A program made the position numbers and the translations under genes. A stretch of 64,000 bases of DNA. Origin: a candidate division WOR-3 bacterium. GTDB taxonomy: Bacteria > Hydrothermota > Tepidihabitantia > Tepidihabitantales > Tepidihabitantaceae. Positions 3 through 56,376 of this stretch are shown piece by piece. Position 1 is the first letter of the stretch; the number at the start of each line of letters is the position of its first letter. Below the pieces are notes generated by a model that was not told where the DNA came from, made no database searches, and saw only the letters and a program-made list of their open reading frames with translations. The stretch lies in assembly GCA_965648935.1 (NCBI GenBank), contig CBFGIY010000001.1, forward strand, positions 32,794-96,793, written 5' to 3'.

Positions 3-266
3 GCAGACCGCCCGGGCCTCGTTGTCATGCCCAACCCGTTTGCCCGCACCGCCCGGGTGCGCTTCACATCGCCGGTCCCCGGGCCGGTCCGGCTCGCTCT
101 CTACAACGCCGCAGGCCAACTGGTTCACAGCGAATCGCACGCGACCGGGAAGCCCGGGCCGGTTGAGTTCCTGCTGGACGGAACGCGGCTGAACAGCGGA
201 ATCTACATTGTGCGGGCCACTTCCCCGGCAGGCACGCTCAGCGCAAGGGTGGCGGTGCTCAGGTAG
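3..266 (+). CDS. 3' fragment of a secreted protein with C-terminal Ig-like (T9SS type A/FlgD-like) sorting domain; 5' end outside window
   Basis: Frame is open from the window edge: ...GLVVMPNPF...LYNAAGQLV...LNSGIYIVR...VAVLR, the PNP / Y-N-x-x-G / G-x-Y pattern of such domains. Confidence 0.75.
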   Translation, partial: ADRPGLVVMPNPFARTARVRFTSPVPGPVRLALYNAAGQLVHSESHATGKPGPVEFLLDGTRLNSGIYIVRATSPAGTLSARVAVLR

Positions 267-981
267 CGCTCCGCCCGGCTGACCAGGCCTCGGCCGCCGA
301 GCGCACCCGCGCGGCCGCGTCCGGCGGCAGGCCCTTCTCTGACTGCCACCGCTCCAGCCGCTCCATTGCCCGCGCCCGCCAGTACCGGCTCTTCTGCGTG
401 CGCCGCAGTGCGGCAACGGTCATCCGGCCGAATGTTACCAGCGGCAGGTACTGCGCCGAGGTCCGGCCGATGCCCAGCCGGTCCAGCTCGCGGCCGATCA
501 ACTCGCGCAGTTCGGCGTCCGCGCGCGCGGCCCGGCCGTGTCTTGCCGCCTGACCGGCCAGCCGCCGCAGACTTCTGCCCGATGGCAGCCCCTTCCCGCG
601 CGCCGCCGCGACTCCCGCAGCGTATCGCGCCGCCGCTTCGAGCGAACCCGGCTCAAGACCGCTGTCCGCCTCGACCACGGCCCGGCGCAGCACCTCGGCG
701 CGCGGGCCGGGTTGCGCGGTCCAGGCCGACAGCAACTCATCCAGTTCGCCGACCCCTGCCCCGCACACGCGCAGGTATTCAAGCACAGTGATGATGCTCG
801 GCGCGCCGCCCCGGCCACTCTCCAGCCGGCTCACTGCCTGCTGGGTAGCCCGGCCCCCGGCGAGCAGGCGGGCAAGCTCTGTTTGGGACAGCCCGGCCCG
901 CTCACGCGCCCGGGCCAGCCTTTGCCCGAGCAGCAGAAGAAACACCTCGCGCGCCAGCGCACTGCCGGTCGAATCTCGCAT
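259..981 (-). CDS. XRE-family HTH protein with a C-terminal helical domain resembling the 29490-29861 capsid-fold-like protein
   Basis: N-term LARARERAGLSQTELARLL...QQAVSRLESGR is a classic XRE HTH. Start placed at ATG 981, 6 nt after a -10-like hexamer. Confidence 0.8.
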   Translation of the reverse strand: MRDSTGSALAREVFLLLLGQRLARARERAGLSQTELARLLAGGRATQQAVSRLESGRGGAPSIITVLEYLRVCGAGVGELDELLSAWTAQPGPRAEVLRRAVVEADSGLEPGSLEAAARYAAGVAAARGKGLPSGRSLRRLAGQAARHGRAARADAELRELIGRELDRLGIGRTSAQYLPLVTFGRMTVAALRRTQKSRYWRARAMERLERWQSEKGLPPDAAARVRSAAEAWSAGRSAT

Positions 982-987
982 TTCGGC

Positions 988-1015
988 AAAATACAACATT
1001 TATGTTGTAAGTCAA
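988..1015 (-). promoter_or_regulatory. sigma70-like promoter of the HTH gene with a palindromic operator in the spacer
   Basis: Minus strand TTGACT (1015-1010), 16 nt, TATTTT (993-988). Perfect inverted repeat TACAACAT-TT-ATGTTGTA at 992-1009. Confidence 0.65.
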
Positions 1016-1444: not shown

Positions 1445-3661
1445 ATGAATAGGTCCGCAATAATCATCGGCGCCCTGCTCGCGCTGTTCGCGGTCGGCCT
1501 TGCCGACTGGGTCAGCGTCGGGCCGGCCGGCGGGCCGGTGTACGCAGGGGCGACCGGGGCGGGCAGCTCGCCGGCGCTGTATGTCGCCTCGACCAACACC
1601 AGCTACCCGCTGCTGCGCTCGACCGACGCAGGCGCGACCTGGGCGACGTTTGGCGCGGTTCTGTCCAACTACCCGCGCCAGCTCGTCGCCCACCCGACCG
1701 ACCCGAACCGGCTCTATCATATCGTCAGCTCGCTGTTCTACCGGACCACGGACGGCGGCGCGACCTGGACCCAGTCTTCGCTCGGGTCCAACAACAACGG
1801 CAACGACATCGCGCTCAATCCCCTCAACCCGCAAACGATTTACGTGCCGACCTACAAGTACGACGGAGCCGCGTGGAAGTTCGCCTGCACCAAGAGCACC
1901 GACGGCGGCGCGACCTGGACCGCGACCCAGCTCGACACCCTGACCGGCTCGACCATCTACTCGGCCATCGTCGACCCGGTCGACACCAGTGTCGTCTATG
2001 TCGGCGCGTACTGGAACAGCATCACCATCGTCTTCAAGTCCACCGACTGCGGCGCGACCTGGACCCGCTATGACTTCCCGGCCAACGCCTACTACATCTA
2101 CTCGTTCTACATCAACCCGGCCAGCCACAACACCGTGCTCGCCGGCACGCTCTACGGCGTGTACCGCTCGACCGATGCCGGCCAGACCTGGACCCGCCAG
2201 AGCACCAACAACTACAACTACCGCATCGTTGCCGCCCCGGACAACCCAAACATCCTCTACTCCGCGGCCTACACCGGCCTGTGGCGCTCGACCGACGGCG
2301 GCCTGACCTGGGCCAACTCCTCATCCGGCATTCAGGGTACCCAGATTCGCGTCGTGCTCACCGTGCCCGGCCAGAACGGGGTCGTGCTCTGCGGCTCGAC
2401 CGGCGGCATGTTCAAGTCGACCGACTACGGCGTAACCTGGACCCCGGCCAACTCGGGCGTAGTTATCGGCAAGATCCCGGCCGTGGCCCACGTGCCGAAC
2501 CAGACCGGCCACGCCTGGGCCGAGTTCACCGACTACGAGCTGTTCCGCACGACCGACAACGGCAACACCTGGTCGGTGGCATCGACGCCGCTGTCCTGCG
2601 GCAACCTCTGCAGCTTCGCGTTTGACCCGGCGGACCCGCAACGCGTCTGGATGCTCGAAGGCTCGGGCTGAGGCAACGCCGAGCTCTTCAAGAGCACCAG
2701 CGGCGGAGCCGCTTGGCAAACATTCACAACCTCACTCTCTGACGGCGGCTGGGTCGCCGTCTCGCCTCACAGCTCGAATGTCGTGTTCGCGGTCGGCAAC
2801 ACTTACAATGCGGCGTATTACATCGGCGTGATGCGCACGACCGACGATGGCGCGACCTGGCGCCAGGATACCCTCCTGCACGGCTCGCGCGCCTGGGCCG
2901 TGGCGTTCGACCCGGTCAACCCCAATCGCGTCTACATCGGCGGCGACTCGGCCTACTCCTACCCGGCGCTGCTCGTCACCACCGACCTCGGCGCGACCTG
3001 GACCCAGAGCCGCAGCGGGCTCACCGGCATCGTGAACGCGCTCGCGGTCGACCCGACCAACCCGAGCCGCATATACGCCGGCAACAGCACGGGCGTGTTC
3101 CGCTCGACCGACGGCGGCGCGACCTGGACCCTCTCGTCGCTCACCCGGAACACCAAGACCATCGTCATCGACGCAACCAACCCCGGCGTGCTCTATGCCG
3201 GGACCTACGGTTACGGCGTGCACAAGAGCACCGACGCAGGCCTGACCTGGACCGACTTCTCGACCGGGCTGACCAACAACAAGGTGCTCTCGCTCGCCCT
3301 GCGCTCAAGCGACGGCACCCTGCTCGCCGGCACCGAGGGCGGCTCGGTGTTCCGCACCGGCGTGCCGACCGCGCTGGCCGAGCCGGGCCTGAACGGCATC
3401 GCCCGCCGCGGCCTCCGCGTCTGGCCCAACCCCCTGACCGGCGAGGGCATCCTCGAGTTCGCGCCCGCGTTCCCGGGCCGGTTCGCTGCCGCGGTCTATG
3501 ACCACGCCGGCAGATGCGTGCTAGACCTAGGCGCGCGCGACCTGTCGGCCGCAGCCGGGTCGTGGCGCATCGACGCGCGCGGCCTTGCCGCCGGAACCTA
3601 CTTCGTGCGGCTTGCCGGCCCGGACGGCACGCGCACGGCCCGGTTCGTCAAGGCCGAGTAG
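1445..3661 (+). CDS. Secreted BNR/Asp-box beta-propeller protein with C-terminal sorting domain; one gene with in-frame TGA at 2669-2671 (codon 409), candidate selenoprotein
   Basis: AAGGAG RBS and signal peptide MNRSAIIIGALLALFAVGLA. Many S/T-T-D-G-G-x-T-W repeats. ORFs 1331-2671 and 2783-3661 are in one frame, and the gap translates GNAELFKSTSGGAAWQTF..., another Asp-box repeat. Confidence 0.85.
2697..2716 (+). promoter_or_regulatory. Candidate bacterial SECIS-like hairpin
   Basis: CCAGCGGC-GGA-GCCGCT(T)GG; the G-starting loop begins 33 nt after the TGA. Confidence 0.45.
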
Positions 3662-5377: not shown

Positions 5378-6271
5378 TCAAGCCGCCAGTCGCGGGTCGC
5401 GCCGGGCGGAGCGGATTGCCGCAAGCGCGCTCTTCTCCTTGTCCTTTATCTCCAGCATCAGGTCGAAGTCGTGCGGCCGGGTCCGGCGCAGGAACTGCCG
5501 GAAGTCGTCAAGTGCGATGTGCTCGGCGTGCTTGCCCCGCCGCGCGCCCGGCTCCTGCGATGAATAATCGCACATCGGGATACCGTCCGGCCGGCGCCAG
5601 GTCCGCGCGCACGCCGCGAGGGCCTCCTCAAGACTCTCCCCCCGGTTGTTCACCGCGTGGTGGAAGCTGTCAAACAGCACCGGGATGCCGACCAGGCCGT
5701 GAACCCGCAGGCAGTCCGCGACCGGGTAGTTCACGTCGTCGTTTTCGATGACCAGGCGCCGCCGCACCGAATCGGGCAGCCGCCGGTAGCGCTCGGCGAA
5801 GCGCGCGATTGCCGCGTCCCGGTTTCCGTACACGCCGCCGACGTGAATCTGTATCTTCGCGCTCCGGCCCAGGCCCAGCAGGTCGAGCACCGCGGCGTGA
5901 TACTCCAGCTCGCGCACGCTGTTCTCGACGATGCGTTCATCGAGCGCGTTGATGAGCGTGAACTGGTCCGGGTGCATCGAGATGCGCACGCCGTGGCGGC
6001 GGATAGACCGCCCGATGCGCTCGAACTCGGACCGGAAATGAGCCTGCCACGGAAAGGTGCATACCGGGTGCGATGCGAATGGCACGAGGTCCGAGCTGAT
6101 GCGGAAGAACCCGATGCCCTGCCCGGCGTTCCAGCGCAGGACATGCGCGAGGCACCGCAGGTTGTTCTGGACCGTCTCGACCAGGCGCTCCGGGCTGTAC
6201 GAGCGCAGCCGGAACGTCCTGTCCCCGAGACATTCGACGGTCCGGTTGATGCAGGGATAGCCGATGCGCAC
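5378..6271 (-). CDS. uvsE: UV DNA damage repair endonuclease UvsE
   Basis: RIGYPCIN, FFRISSDLVPFASHP, SMHPDQF, IHVGGVYG, IENDD, MLEIKDKE. Confidence 0.93.
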   Translation of the reverse strand: MRIGYPCINRTVECLGDRTFRLRSYSPERLVETVQNNLRCLAHVLRWNAGQGIGFFRISSDLVPFASHPVCTFPWQAHFRSEFERIGRSIRRHGVRISMHPDQFTLINALDERIVENSVRELEYHAAVLDLLGLGRSAKIQIHVGGVYGNRDAAIARFAERYRRLPDSVRRRLVIENDDVNYPVADCLRVHGLVGIPVLFDSFHHAVNNRGESLEEALAACARTWRRPDGIPMCDYSSQEPGARRGKHAEHIALDDFRQFLRRTRPHDFDLMLEIKDKEKSALAAIRSARRDPRLAA

Positions 6272-29489: not shown

Positions 29490-29861
29490 TCAGGGCGTCG
29501 GGTCGGGAATCGAAAGCACCTGCAGGCGCAGTGCGTCGAGCACGGTCTTCTTCAGCTCGCGCGCAATCCACTTGTTCTCGACCACCATCGCCTCGCGCCG
29601 CAGGGTCTCGCCCGTGAACCGCCGCTTCTTCTTCCACACCTCGCGGCAGAAATTCAGGTACCCGATGTAGGTGTGGGTCGGCACCCCGGCCTCGCCGAGT
29701 ACCTCCTTGGCCTTGTTCTCCAGTTCGGCCAGCTCCTCCTGCACCTCGGTTTGCTTCGCGACCATCCGCTCGCGCCGCGCATCCACGAGCTTCTTGATGG
29801 TCTCGGTATTGTACTTCAGATTGTAGTTGTAGACGCGGTCGACCCCGGACTTCACTCCCAC
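29490..29861 (-). CDS. 123-aa basic helical protein resembling the Adnaviria (SIRV2-fold) major capsid protein
   Basis: AGGAG RBS, own promoter, host-like codon use. Pattern R...Y..KY, long helix, E..AKEVL...GV......YLNF.R.V, W....L...VLD. The gene itself is solid; the fold call is by eye. Confidence 0.7.
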   Translation of the reverse strand: MGVKSGVDRVYNYNLKYNTETIKKLVDARRERMVAKQTEVQEELAELENKAKEVLGEAGVPTHTYIGYLNFCREVWKKKRRFTGETLRREAMVVENKWIARELKKTVLDALRLQVLSIPDPTP

Positions 29862-29953: not shown

Positions 29954-29982
29954 ACTCTAGCGAAATCAGGCCGGCCTGTCAA
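29954..29982 (-). promoter_or_regulatory. sigma70-like promoter of the capsid-fold-like gene
   Basis: Minus strand TTGACA (29982-29977), 17 nt, TAGAGT (29959-29954). Confidence 0.7.
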
Positions 29983-30000
29983 CACCCGACAACCCGCTTA

Positions 30001-30276
30001 CCTCCCGCCGCCCAACCCCTCAACCAACTAACCAACCAGCCCAACTCTCATACCGACCACCCTTGCATCTAACCATATAACCATCAACTACTTATTCAAC
30101 CAAGTACTCATAGGTAGGGGCTAGCCCCCACACTAGCCCCCCGGCAGTACACTAGGCTGAATGACAGACTAAACTAATAGCGATACAGCTCGCCGATAGG
30201 GTAGCTATACGATGCGCTGATTACCGGCCTGCCATTAGGCCAACCCATCAGGCATTCCATCAGCCAGCCGGACCAA
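30001..30276. repeat. 12-bp-phased non-identical array (tract 2) containing the 25-nt motif at 30070-30094
   Basis: 23 of 23 consecutive 12-mers from 30001 begin with C, and 18 of 23 begin CA or CT. Lower GC, C/A-skewed; no ORF listed. Confidence 0.85.
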
Positions 30277-30610
30277 TACCTTACACAGAAGCACCAGTGG
30301 TTTGTATGCCTTGTGCTATGCTCATTCATTCGAATTACTTACGGCTCGGTCACTCGATTCAGACCGATGCTGCGGCGTCCGGCCGAGCCGTGGCGCCCAT
30401 CAACCTGCCGCTTGACGCGAGGCTTCCCAGCAAAACCACGCCGCCGGAGTCCGCTTCCCCGGCGACTCGTGCCAGTCCGTCAATCTGCCCGGCTTGCTGC
30501 CTTCGGCCAGCGACCGCAGTGTTGTCTGCTCCCCGCCGACCGACGTGCCGACCCACCACAGCGAGCGAGCCGGCGGCAGATGCGCCGCCGGCTCATAGAG
30601 ACCGCATTGC

Positions 30611-56219: not shown

Positions 56220-56376
56220 GATGAGGTATGCCGAGGGGGTGGAGGTGCACTGCGGCGGGCAGGACCCGCCGCAGCCAAATCCCCACTGATGAGGCATGCT
56301 GATGGGGTGGAGGTGCACTGCGGCGGGCAGAACCCGCCGCAGCCAAATCCCCACTGATGATGTATGCCGAGGGGGG
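56220..56376. repeat. 68-bp tandem repeat (2 full copies plus a partial copy overlapping the tRNA-Leu 3' end), each full copy with a 10-bp hairpin
   Basis: Units start at 56220, 56288 and 56356; hairpin CTGCGGCGGG-CAG(G/A)A-CCCGCCGCAG. Confidence 0.92.

Follow-up and report, generated by a model that had tools for sequence, protein, structure and literature searches.

The fusion gene and its surroundings

The window, i.e., the entire 64,000-nucleotide stretch of DNA from a candidate division WOR-3 bacterium that was analyzed here, carries on its minus strand, at positions 259 to 981, a gene for a 240-amino-acid protein that joins two domains. The XRE-type helix-turn-helix (HTH) domain (residues 24 to 89; positions 733 to 930, minus strand) was assigned by Pfam and by structural matches, and the C-terminal domain (residues 117 to 240; positions 280 to 651, minus strand), which is predicted to have the SIRV2 fold of adnaviral major capsid proteins, was assigned by structure alignment and HHalign. 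The open reading frame (ORF) ends with a stop codon at 259 to 261 and is open up to an ATG at 999, which would yield 246 residues and from which the residue numbers used here are counted. The second ATG, at 981, is probably the true start of the gene, because it corresponds to the start of close homologs and lies 6 nt downstream of the end of a -35/-10 pair.

The first-pass annotation had assigned an XRE-type HTH to this ORF, and HTH_31 indeed matches residues 24 to 89 above the Pfam cutoff (E = 1.3e-10; HTH_3, E = 8e-7), with nothing found by Pfam in the rest of the chain. XRE proteins are also the top structural matches for residues 10 to 99 of the model (Z of up to 11.3), so that the protein has the HTH domain typical of XRE (HTH_3/HTH_31) regulators. 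It is not a short, HTH-only protein encoded beside restriction-modification genes, as the controller (C) proteins of such systems are: it has 240 residues and a second domain, and its neighbors code for secreted repeat proteins. The 120-kb contig is chromosomal, with housekeeping and secretion-cargo genes, and is not a linear double-stranded DNA genome of an archaeal virus. The fusion gene genuinely belongs to the XRE regulators and is genuinely related to the SIRV2-fold proteins, and it is not a viral capsid gene.

Elsewhere in the window, the divergent gene for a BNR-repeat secreted protein (positions 1445 to 3661) is split by an in-frame TGA codon at 2669 to 2671, beyond which the same frame goes on; judging from the sequence, this codon could be read through, could encode selenocysteine, or could mark a broken gene. 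An ORF at 5378 to 6271 (minus strand) resembles, by eye, a UV damage endonuclease (UvsE), and a 68-bp tandem repeat (2.3 copies, 90% matches) is located at positions 56220 to 56375.

Homology to a family of stand-alone proteins

The gene at positions 29490 to 29861 (minus strand), one of seven such stand-alone genes in the genome, encodes a 123-amino-acid protein with a predicted SIRV2 fold, which the first-pass annotation had aligned by eye with the C terminus of the fusion protein. The stretches it quoted are present in both proteins and the register of that alignment agrees (AEL/AEL, LGI/AGV, FGR/FCR, and W/W), but the pairwise similarity is at chance level (local score of 27 versus 26.8 for 1,000 shuffles; p = 0.45), and therefore the match by eye would not, by itself, be evidence. 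BLASTP pairs the 123-residue protein with the wrong half of the fusion.

Relatives of both proteins were gathered from genomes of the same phylum, giving alignments of 34 rows for the C-terminal domain (three short or atypical rows having been removed) and of 37 rows for the 123-residue family. HHalign matched the two at 94.9% (E = 4.5e-8) over 112 columns; the values were 85.7% (E = 5.5e-6) with the alignments made by the tool itself and 92.8% with deep alignments. The controls scored 0.1% (HTH half) and 0.5% (reversed alignments), and the best results were 3.3% among 100 column shuffles and 29% among 100 shuffles of seven-residue blocks; a profile built from the five closest sequences of the clade alone gave 4%. 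The profile comparison that had been proposed as a check is thus significant, at 86 to 95% over approximately 112 columns, against no more than 29% for the shuffles.

Searches with profile HMMs gave the same picture. Among the 2,046 called genes of this genome, the deep fused-domain HMM ranks four fusions first, followed by the stand-alone gene on contig C112 (E = 2.7e-9), and finds the stand-alone gene of the window at an E value of 0.0028. The fusion-domain profile finds, as a reciprocal match, a stand-alone gene of another genome (G030), and the natural second domain of a long fusion (see below) matches the stand-alone HMM at an E value of 4.8e-7 among 150 proteins. The match starts at the N-terminal R-x-x-K-[WY]-D-x-K motif of the 123-residue protein, nearly all of which it spans, some 45 residues earlier than had been suggested by eye; the first-pass annotation was right about the C-terminal region and too narrow in its extent. 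Profile comparisons therefore confirm that the fused domain and the 29490 protein are homologous; the latter, judging by sequence, is a relative of the fusion and only a candidate partner for it. A complex prediction for the fused domain and this protein, which is one of seven possible stand-alone partners and the only one tried, scored 0.00 against a mark of 0.32, with the controls not folded, and speaks neither for nor against pairing. Contigs from RNA runs of two studies, approximately 90 to 95% alike, cover the stand-alone gene and give neither strand nor level of expression. A weak phmmer match of 29490 to 29861 to an anti-CRISPR protein (23aa_A; E = 0.12) is absent with the family profile.

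Link to the capsid proteins of Adnaviria

The best match of the 123-residue protein in the PDB is AFV1 ORF140 (E = 0.012), and with the profile of the stand-alone family adnaviral capsid chains take the top 6 of 13 rows (E values from 0.0013 to 0.24). No capsid protein was found by a direct sequence search with the fused-domain profile, so the sequence homology of the fused domain with capsid proteins is transitive only, through the stand-alone family.

The AlphaFold model of the fusion protein (31 rows; pLDDT of 93) was aligned to 48,161 chains, and on its C-terminal part adnaviral capsid proteins hold the five highest ranks: AFV1 ORF140 (Z = 10.4), AFV1 ORF132 (5w7g_B; Z = 10.3, root mean square deviation of 3.0, with 122 of 126 residues aligned to model residues 117 to 240), SSRV1 (6wq0; Z = 9.9, root mean square deviation of 1.8), SIRV (Z = 8.3), and 3FBL (Z = 8.1). 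They are followed by the unrelated Cas12m2 (Z = 8.0) and then by SIFV (Z = 7.9). The superposition proposed in the first-pass annotation has thus returned capsid proteins in all five leading places. The tool warns that, for helical bundles, Z scores below approximately 13 may reflect a common arrangement, and the values here, 8 to 11, are moderate; what carries the case for the capsid fold is ranking and coverage together with its consistency with the profile comparison. A Foldseek search of the PDB with the full fusion model gave HTH matches only, none at an E value of 0.001. What had been described as a four-helix bundle of a capsid protein appears in the model as the whole fold, with the DNA-binding N-terminal arm and the four-helix bundle, over residues 117 to 240; the assignment to the adnaviral capsid fold held, and its restriction to the bundle did not. 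The arrangement that defines the SIRV2-fold superfamily is accordingly present in the modeled fused domain. No named family was found for either capsid-fold domain in Pfam and PHROGs, and the ESM Atlas gave no usable match for two stand-alone proteins. The fused domains keep basic and aromatic positions and have a median net charge of +11.

A natural two-domain fragment from a long member of the family was modeled from 80 rows, with a pLDDT of 97. Capsid proteins fill the first six places among its matches and 8 of the first 10, and four of the six lie wholly on the second domain. In the viral library, the named high-probability rows for this fragment are proteins of rod-shaped (rudiviruses) or filamentous archaeal viruses, none of them at an E value of 0.001.

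The adnaviral capsid chains considered here are those of AFV1 (ORF132 and ORF140; 5W7G, 3FBZ, and 3FBL), SSRV1 (6WQ0), SIRV (3J9X and 3F2E), SFV1 (6D5F), SIFV (6WQ2), and PFV2 (6V7B). As described in the available text of two structural reports, each capsid dimer covers 12 bp of A-form DNA in SFV1, AFV1, and SIRV, and the dimer axis of SIRV2 sits on the DNA dyad (PMC6105669, PMC5517147).

Domain architectures and phyletic distribution

The fused-domain profile matched 179 clusters among 1.84 billion representatives. Among the 150 clusters listed, 115 have an HTH domain, the remaining 35 begin within 60 residues of the capsid-fold domain and are probably fragments, and no other N-terminal domain was found. 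A further tail follows the fused domain in 76 of the 115 HTH-bearing clusters listed; because this tail models as a second capsid fold, the long fusions are, according to the models, combinations of an HTH with two capsid folds. Tandem pairs of fusion genes were seen at five loci (L038, L084, L086, L088, and L089), three of which consist of a one-domain and a two-domain gene.

The genome of the window encodes 5 fusions and 7 stand-alone proteins. In a taxon-by-name survey, which covered genomes of the phylum (a sample of 201), the stand-alone family is found in all 35 genomes of the order, with 3 to 22 matches in each, and in 1 of 166 genomes outside the order, at an E value of 0.006. The fused domain is found in 19 genomes of the same sample, all of them within the order and 17 in the same family as the genome of the window; a tally of 51 of 61 includes HTH-only matches and was left out of the fusion count. 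The source names of the stand-alone homologs are mostly candidate division WOR-3.

The genes of both families are surrounded by variable housekeeping and secretion-cargo genes. They have no conserved neighbors, and one ortholog occupies a different place in one congener. None of the 127 neighbors scanned is viral, and no relative was found in viral contigs and phage records by scans that are sensitive to close relatives only; a single match in viral collections falls in another frame of an unrelated gene. Both families are thus confined to one WOR-3 order, multicopy, chromosomal, and without viral neighbors. Such confinement would fit one capture of the capsid fold, in the ancestor of the order.

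Promoters and candidate operators

The promoter of the fusion gene in the window (TTGACT, 16 nt, TATTTT; positions 988 to 1015, minus strand) was recognized by eye by its likeness to the sigma-70 consensus, and a similar layout is seen in most homologs; the transcript is probably leaderless. A perfect 8-2-8 inverted repeat at positions 992 to 1009 fills the spacer between the -35 and -10 boxes. It outscores 30 of 30 shuffles and has related half-sites in both same-genus orthologs, and we consider it a candidate autoregulatory operator, to which the fusion protein would bind. Between the 12-bp box described below and the -35 element, at positions 1026 to 1059, lies an AT-rich stretch similar to the integration host factor (IHF) site consensus, with a counterpart at the same position in many homologs.

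Strong promoter-overlapping palindromes are present in 9 of 32 fusion genes, each with a sequence of its own, and absent from the other 23; the turn and the recognition helix of the HTH also vary between paralogs. Under a relaxed pattern, just two further matches to the operator of the window occur in the genome, one of them inside a gene. The operators of two other paralogs (on contigs C14 and C25) fit one pattern, of which the genome contains 14 exact copies (versus 0 in a Markov simulation) and 20 sites when one mismatch is allowed (versus 1); the 16 of these 20 sites whose context was examined all lie between called genes. Exact copies also occur in both congeners (5 and 7). A G-rich box lies 55 to 115 bp from 13 of the 20 sites, compared with 3% of random sites, an enrichment that is partly circular because the box was picked by eye from the same sites. 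Orphan operators of this type (e.g., G000 C21:20154, C3:37124, C30:12853, and C41:1055) are often accompanied by the box and an array; the C21 site, which is flanked by convergent genes, still carries the decayed start of a gene. A genome from another family (G106) has its own variant of a dispersed operator-like palindrome, with 7 sites.

Arrays with a 12-bp period upstream of the fusion genes

Lag autocorrelation of the DNA upstream of 30 fusion genes gave mean z scores of 5.0, 5.3, and 4.6 at lags of 12, 24, and 36, respectively, and z scores of at most 0.1 at every other lag from 2 to 35. The result was replicated on newly fetched loci (5.7, 5.6, and 5.6, with 21 of 24 scorable), for which the downstream control gave 0.1. 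A combined z score of at least 4 was obtained for 33 of 46 first-position fusion genes (23 of 29 one-domain and 10 of 17 two-domain forms) and for none of the 5 second genes of tandem pairs. The 25 strongest arrays consist of 13 to 62 units and end approximately 60 to 190 bp before a reference point near the gene start, with the promoter of the fusion gene itself between the array and the start. The strongest arrays derive for the most part from a single genus, so that the loci are not independent, although no fewer than seven genera and two families are represented.

What these arrays share is period and symmetry. Their unit sequences differ between loci, and the mean phased profile of 33 arrays is two-fold symmetric (r = 0.85, compared with at most 0.27 at other shifts). 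In one orthologous array, the period is kept (z scores of 5.9 and 11.2) despite turnover of the sequence, and the flanks on either side are 93% and 88% identical; another is 89% identical without indels. Simple patterns of G tracts and C tracts separate upstream from downstream DNA only weakly (16 versus 6 of 35 and 15 versus 9 of 28). Open frames across the arrays are slightly more frequent than expected (2.1 versus 1.7); as a whole the arrays look noncoding, with neither a frame nor a peptide common to 25 of them and with one in which all six frames are closed, although single loci may still be coding. Within the window, the arrays are missed by Tandem Repeats Finder.

In the genome of the window, a period of 12 was detected in 25 of 358 intergenic regions, whereas each of the remaining periods in the range of 7 to 18 was detected in 0 to 3. 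The 12-bp box that anchors the arrays has 37 of its 40 matches in intergenic DNA, which makes up 12% of the genome, and an extended box was found in 14 of 18 other genomes of the same family, 1 of 16 other genomes of the order, and 9 of 166 outside it. Of 61,381 genome windows, the two that rank highest for period 12 lie upstream of stand-alone genes. Most stand-alone genes are nevertheless without arrays, which precede only a subset of them: the z score at lag 12 was 1.8 in the first set and, in the replication, 1.2 upstream versus 0.8 downstream. Array strength does not follow similarity to the stand-alone family (rho = 0.01).

The period and symmetry of the arrays match the 12 bp per dimer of the adnaviral capsomer, and neither was used to find the homology.

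The eroded copy in the window

The fusion gene of the window is not typical of its family. Its array has a combined z score of only 2.7, near background, and is represented by approximately three 12-bp units with a G-tract/C-tract box at positions 1073 to 1108, a weak and vestigial form of the family array (phased-profile score of 9.3, p of approximately 0.05 against 200 shuffles, and rank 41 of 462 intergenic regions). One ortholog is without an array (z = -0.4) and the other has a weak one (z = 3.6). The protein has also lost the family-conserved residues D127, K129, K193, W/F195, and R202. Given the few array units and lost residues, with the operator kept, this copy is probably a decayed member of the family and may now act mainly as a dimeric autorepressor.

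The stand-alone gene at 29490 is preceded by a 12-bp box, GGGGGCTAGCCC on the minus strand, at positions 30118 to 30129, within a degenerate region of 12-bp period (positions 29962 to 30329). This region has a z score of 4.9 at lag 12, which is also obtained beyond the box, and of 3.5 at lag 8; it ranks 20th among 362 intergenic regions, and its match to the fusion-derived profile is not significant (p = 0.19).

NrdR-box-like sites beside orphan arrays

Palindromes of 14 bp that resemble the NrdR-box consensus were found at 39 sites of the genome, 34 of them intergenic. There are 10 tandem pairs, all spaced exactly 32 bp; the available text of one study describes tandem NrdR boxes that are 31 to 32 bp apart (PMC2892513). 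Of 24 intergenic clusters of such sites, 13 lie beside a 12-bp array (examples of clusters are G000 C3:10975, C12:39641, C26:12953, C61:4296, C68:9996, and C70:8682). The sites are far more numerous than in a normal nrd regulon and often do not precede a promoter. NrdR, which senses nucleotide pools, is encoded in 52 of 61 genomes of the order, including both congeners, and no gene for it was found in the 96%-complete assembly of the window's genome. Because many orphan arrays adjoin these palindromes, the fusions are not the sole candidate partners of the arrays.

A model for the fusion family

In the model that we lean toward, a palindromic operator would be bound by the HTH, and the capsid fold would act as the seed for dimers on the array. 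The family would consist of self-regulated DNA-binding proteins with an XRE head and one or two adnaviral capsid folds, and the latter would dimerize as in virions, either alone, or within one chain in the two-domain forms, or with the stand-alone paralogs. The HTH heads would bind the palindrome over their own promoter and its dispersed copies, and capsid-fold dimers would then load side by side on the adjoining array, each covering 12 bp. The result would be a local nucleocapsid-like segment of 10 to 30 dimers, possibly on A-form DNA, that might cooperatively control the promoter or organize the chromosome locally. The support is computational throughout; from the sequences and the models, we infer DNA binding, the polymer, and, possibly, A-form DNA, and for the wrapping of 12 bp in A-form by each dimer the dyad-symmetric 12-bp arrays are indirect support by analogy with the virion.

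The likeness to capsid proteins of Adnaviria extends to the fold, including the N-terminal arm, to the basic surface, and to homology through the stand-alone family, and the period and dyad of the arrays correspond to the 12 bp per dimer given for the virions in the parts of the structural reports cited above. The capsomer made of two paralogs has a one-chain parallel in the two-domain fusions. Unlike those capsid proteins, the proteins described here are encoded in multiple copies on a bacterial chromosome without viral neighbors. None of the matched capsid chains has a sequence-specific head, whereas the fusion has one, and the virions coat a whole genome, whereas dedicated phased tracks are found here.

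In a broader version of this model, which we offer tentatively, one order would have turned the capsid protein of an archaeal filamentous virus into programmable chromatin, with the products of the 3 to 22 stand-alone genes as subunits, HTH fusions and, at other sites, NrdR as site-specific nucleators or barriers, and approximately 25 dispersed arrays per genome as the tracks on which A-form nucleocapsid segments would assemble.

Alternative explanations

The fusion protein could instead be a conventional XRE repressor whose capsid fold was recruited for dimerization only and makes no contact with DNA, and the arrays could be read by stand-alone proteins or be a mutational trace. This is the best fit for the copy in the window, with its intact operator, near-absent array, and eroded motif residues, and the palindromic operators are as expected for dimeric XRE proteins, with a turn and recognition helix that vary between paralogs. 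For the family as a whole we consider it unlikely, since the arrays track fusion genes more than stand-alone genes, the N-terminal arm is still present in the fused domain, whose charge is strongly basic, and dimerization alone would not need the second capsid copy of the two-domain forms. The likeness to XRE repressors (C.BclI, 2B5A; C.AhdI, 1Y7Y; HipB/ClgR) consists of the HTH and the palindrome over the gene's own promoter, and the capsid fold and the upstream periodic arrays set the fusions apart; no restriction-modification or toxin gene adjoins the fusion of the window.

It is improbable, in our view, that the arrays are transcribed as noncoding RNAs paired with the regulator, as in the Brt/Trp modules of Bartonella, or as double-stranded RNA, naturally A-form, that is bound by the capsid fold. 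Those modules, as described in the available text (PMC5387305), likewise have a repeated intergenic element, highly transcribed in their case, before an XRE gene and are lineage specific and multicopy, but Brt RNAs are highly homologous and share sequence and structure, whereas the arrays share only period and symmetry and are not conserved in sequence between loci. While 16 of 48 array strands fold better than their dinucleotide shuffles (z of -2 or below), there is no gain over shuffles of the 12-bp units (mean z of -0.3, with 6 of 48 at -2 or below), and neither strand is preferred; this argues against a specific RNA structure, although not against transcription. The arrays thus display neither the conserved upstream sequence nor the specific RNA structure of a Brt/Trp module, and the fusion gene's own promoter stands between array and start.

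We see a similarly small chance that the gene makes up, with its operator, box, and array, a mobile cassette or the packaging signal of a virus-derived element (of the satellite or gene transfer agent type), with the orphan arrays as relics or packaging starts. Mobility would agree with the 3 to 22 stand-alone matches per genome, the variable neighborhoods, the relocated ortholog in one congener, the orphan cassette with a decayed gene start, and the matching sites of genome G081, at which no cassettes were found. However, orphan cassettes are kept at orthologous sites in genome G218, an HMM search found no gene remnant near 32 orphan sites, stand-alone genes are present in 35 of 35 genomes of the order, none of the 127 neighbors scanned is viral, and searches of viral contigs and phage records, sensitive to close relatives only, gave no relative.

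That the C-terminal domain is an unrelated helical bundle, similar to capsid proteins by convergence, is hardly credible: the chance-level pairwise score, the 4% of the five-sequence clade profile, the moderate Z scores, and the lack of a direct sequence match to capsids would fit it, but the full-length profile match with shared motifs is far above all controls, capsid proteins of several virus families top two independent structure searches, the natural second domain matches the stand-alone HMM among 150 proteins, and the 12-bp period played no part in finding the homology.

Comparison with other systems and implications

In the preferred model, the fusions would load at a site and then spread. 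ParB loads at parS in a site-specific manner and then spreads, and the small acid-soluble proteins of the alpha/beta type, or SASPs, have small, scattered, multicopy genes and could protect DNA in the A-form. The proposed loading and spreading and the scattered multicopy genes are similar here, whereas the fold is different, with no match to either family by Pfam in the fusion. Encapsulins and gene transfer agents, according to the available text of PMC8987985, are likewise cases of a virion fold produced from stand-alone cellular genes, but they have the HK97 fold and form shells or particles, whereas the present families have the SIRV2 fold, DNA-binding heads, and arrays in cis.

According to the ICTV profile, the capsid fold of the adnaviral realm is exclusive to it, all hosts being archaea (PMC12282232), and the available text of a 2024 review states that adnavirians appear unconnected to viruses of bacteria (PMC10848233). 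In literature searches, mainly of open-access papers and at the level of titles and abstracts, no report came up of SIRV2-fold proteins in bacteria, of fusions like these, or of arrays with a 12-bp period. A bacterial fusion family together with arrays of the capsomer's footprint is the first concrete, testable sign that this fold binds DNA in the capsid manner inside cells, and it suggests that selected parts of a bacterium's chromosome are wrapped by a domesticated virus coat. Such a system bears on the origin of the fold and on whether A-form nucleoprotein serves cells as chromatin, and it offers a likely sequence code for positioning capsomers. If the broader version of the model is true, the 12-bp arrays would be a positioning code analogous to the nucleosome positioning signal of approximately 10 bp. 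Expression in a laboratory host is feasible for all of the parts, each of which is small.

Regulatory features of the stand-alone genes

A 14-nt motif precedes three of the seven stand-alone capsid-fold genes of this genome (G000 C4:31793, C25:10675, and C145:1291), its only three occurrences there, and looks, by sequence, like a promoter for an alternative sigma factor. A promoter shared by the stand-alone genes across the order was considered and rejected, the motif not being seen at the loci of other genomes. Frames similar, by eye, to ECF sigma factors lie directly upstream of some stand-alone genes (L024:730-1398, L026 at approximately 900 to 1400, and L066 at approximately 3300 to 3600); the frame at L024 has no Pfam match, and the genome of the window retains a remnant of region 4.
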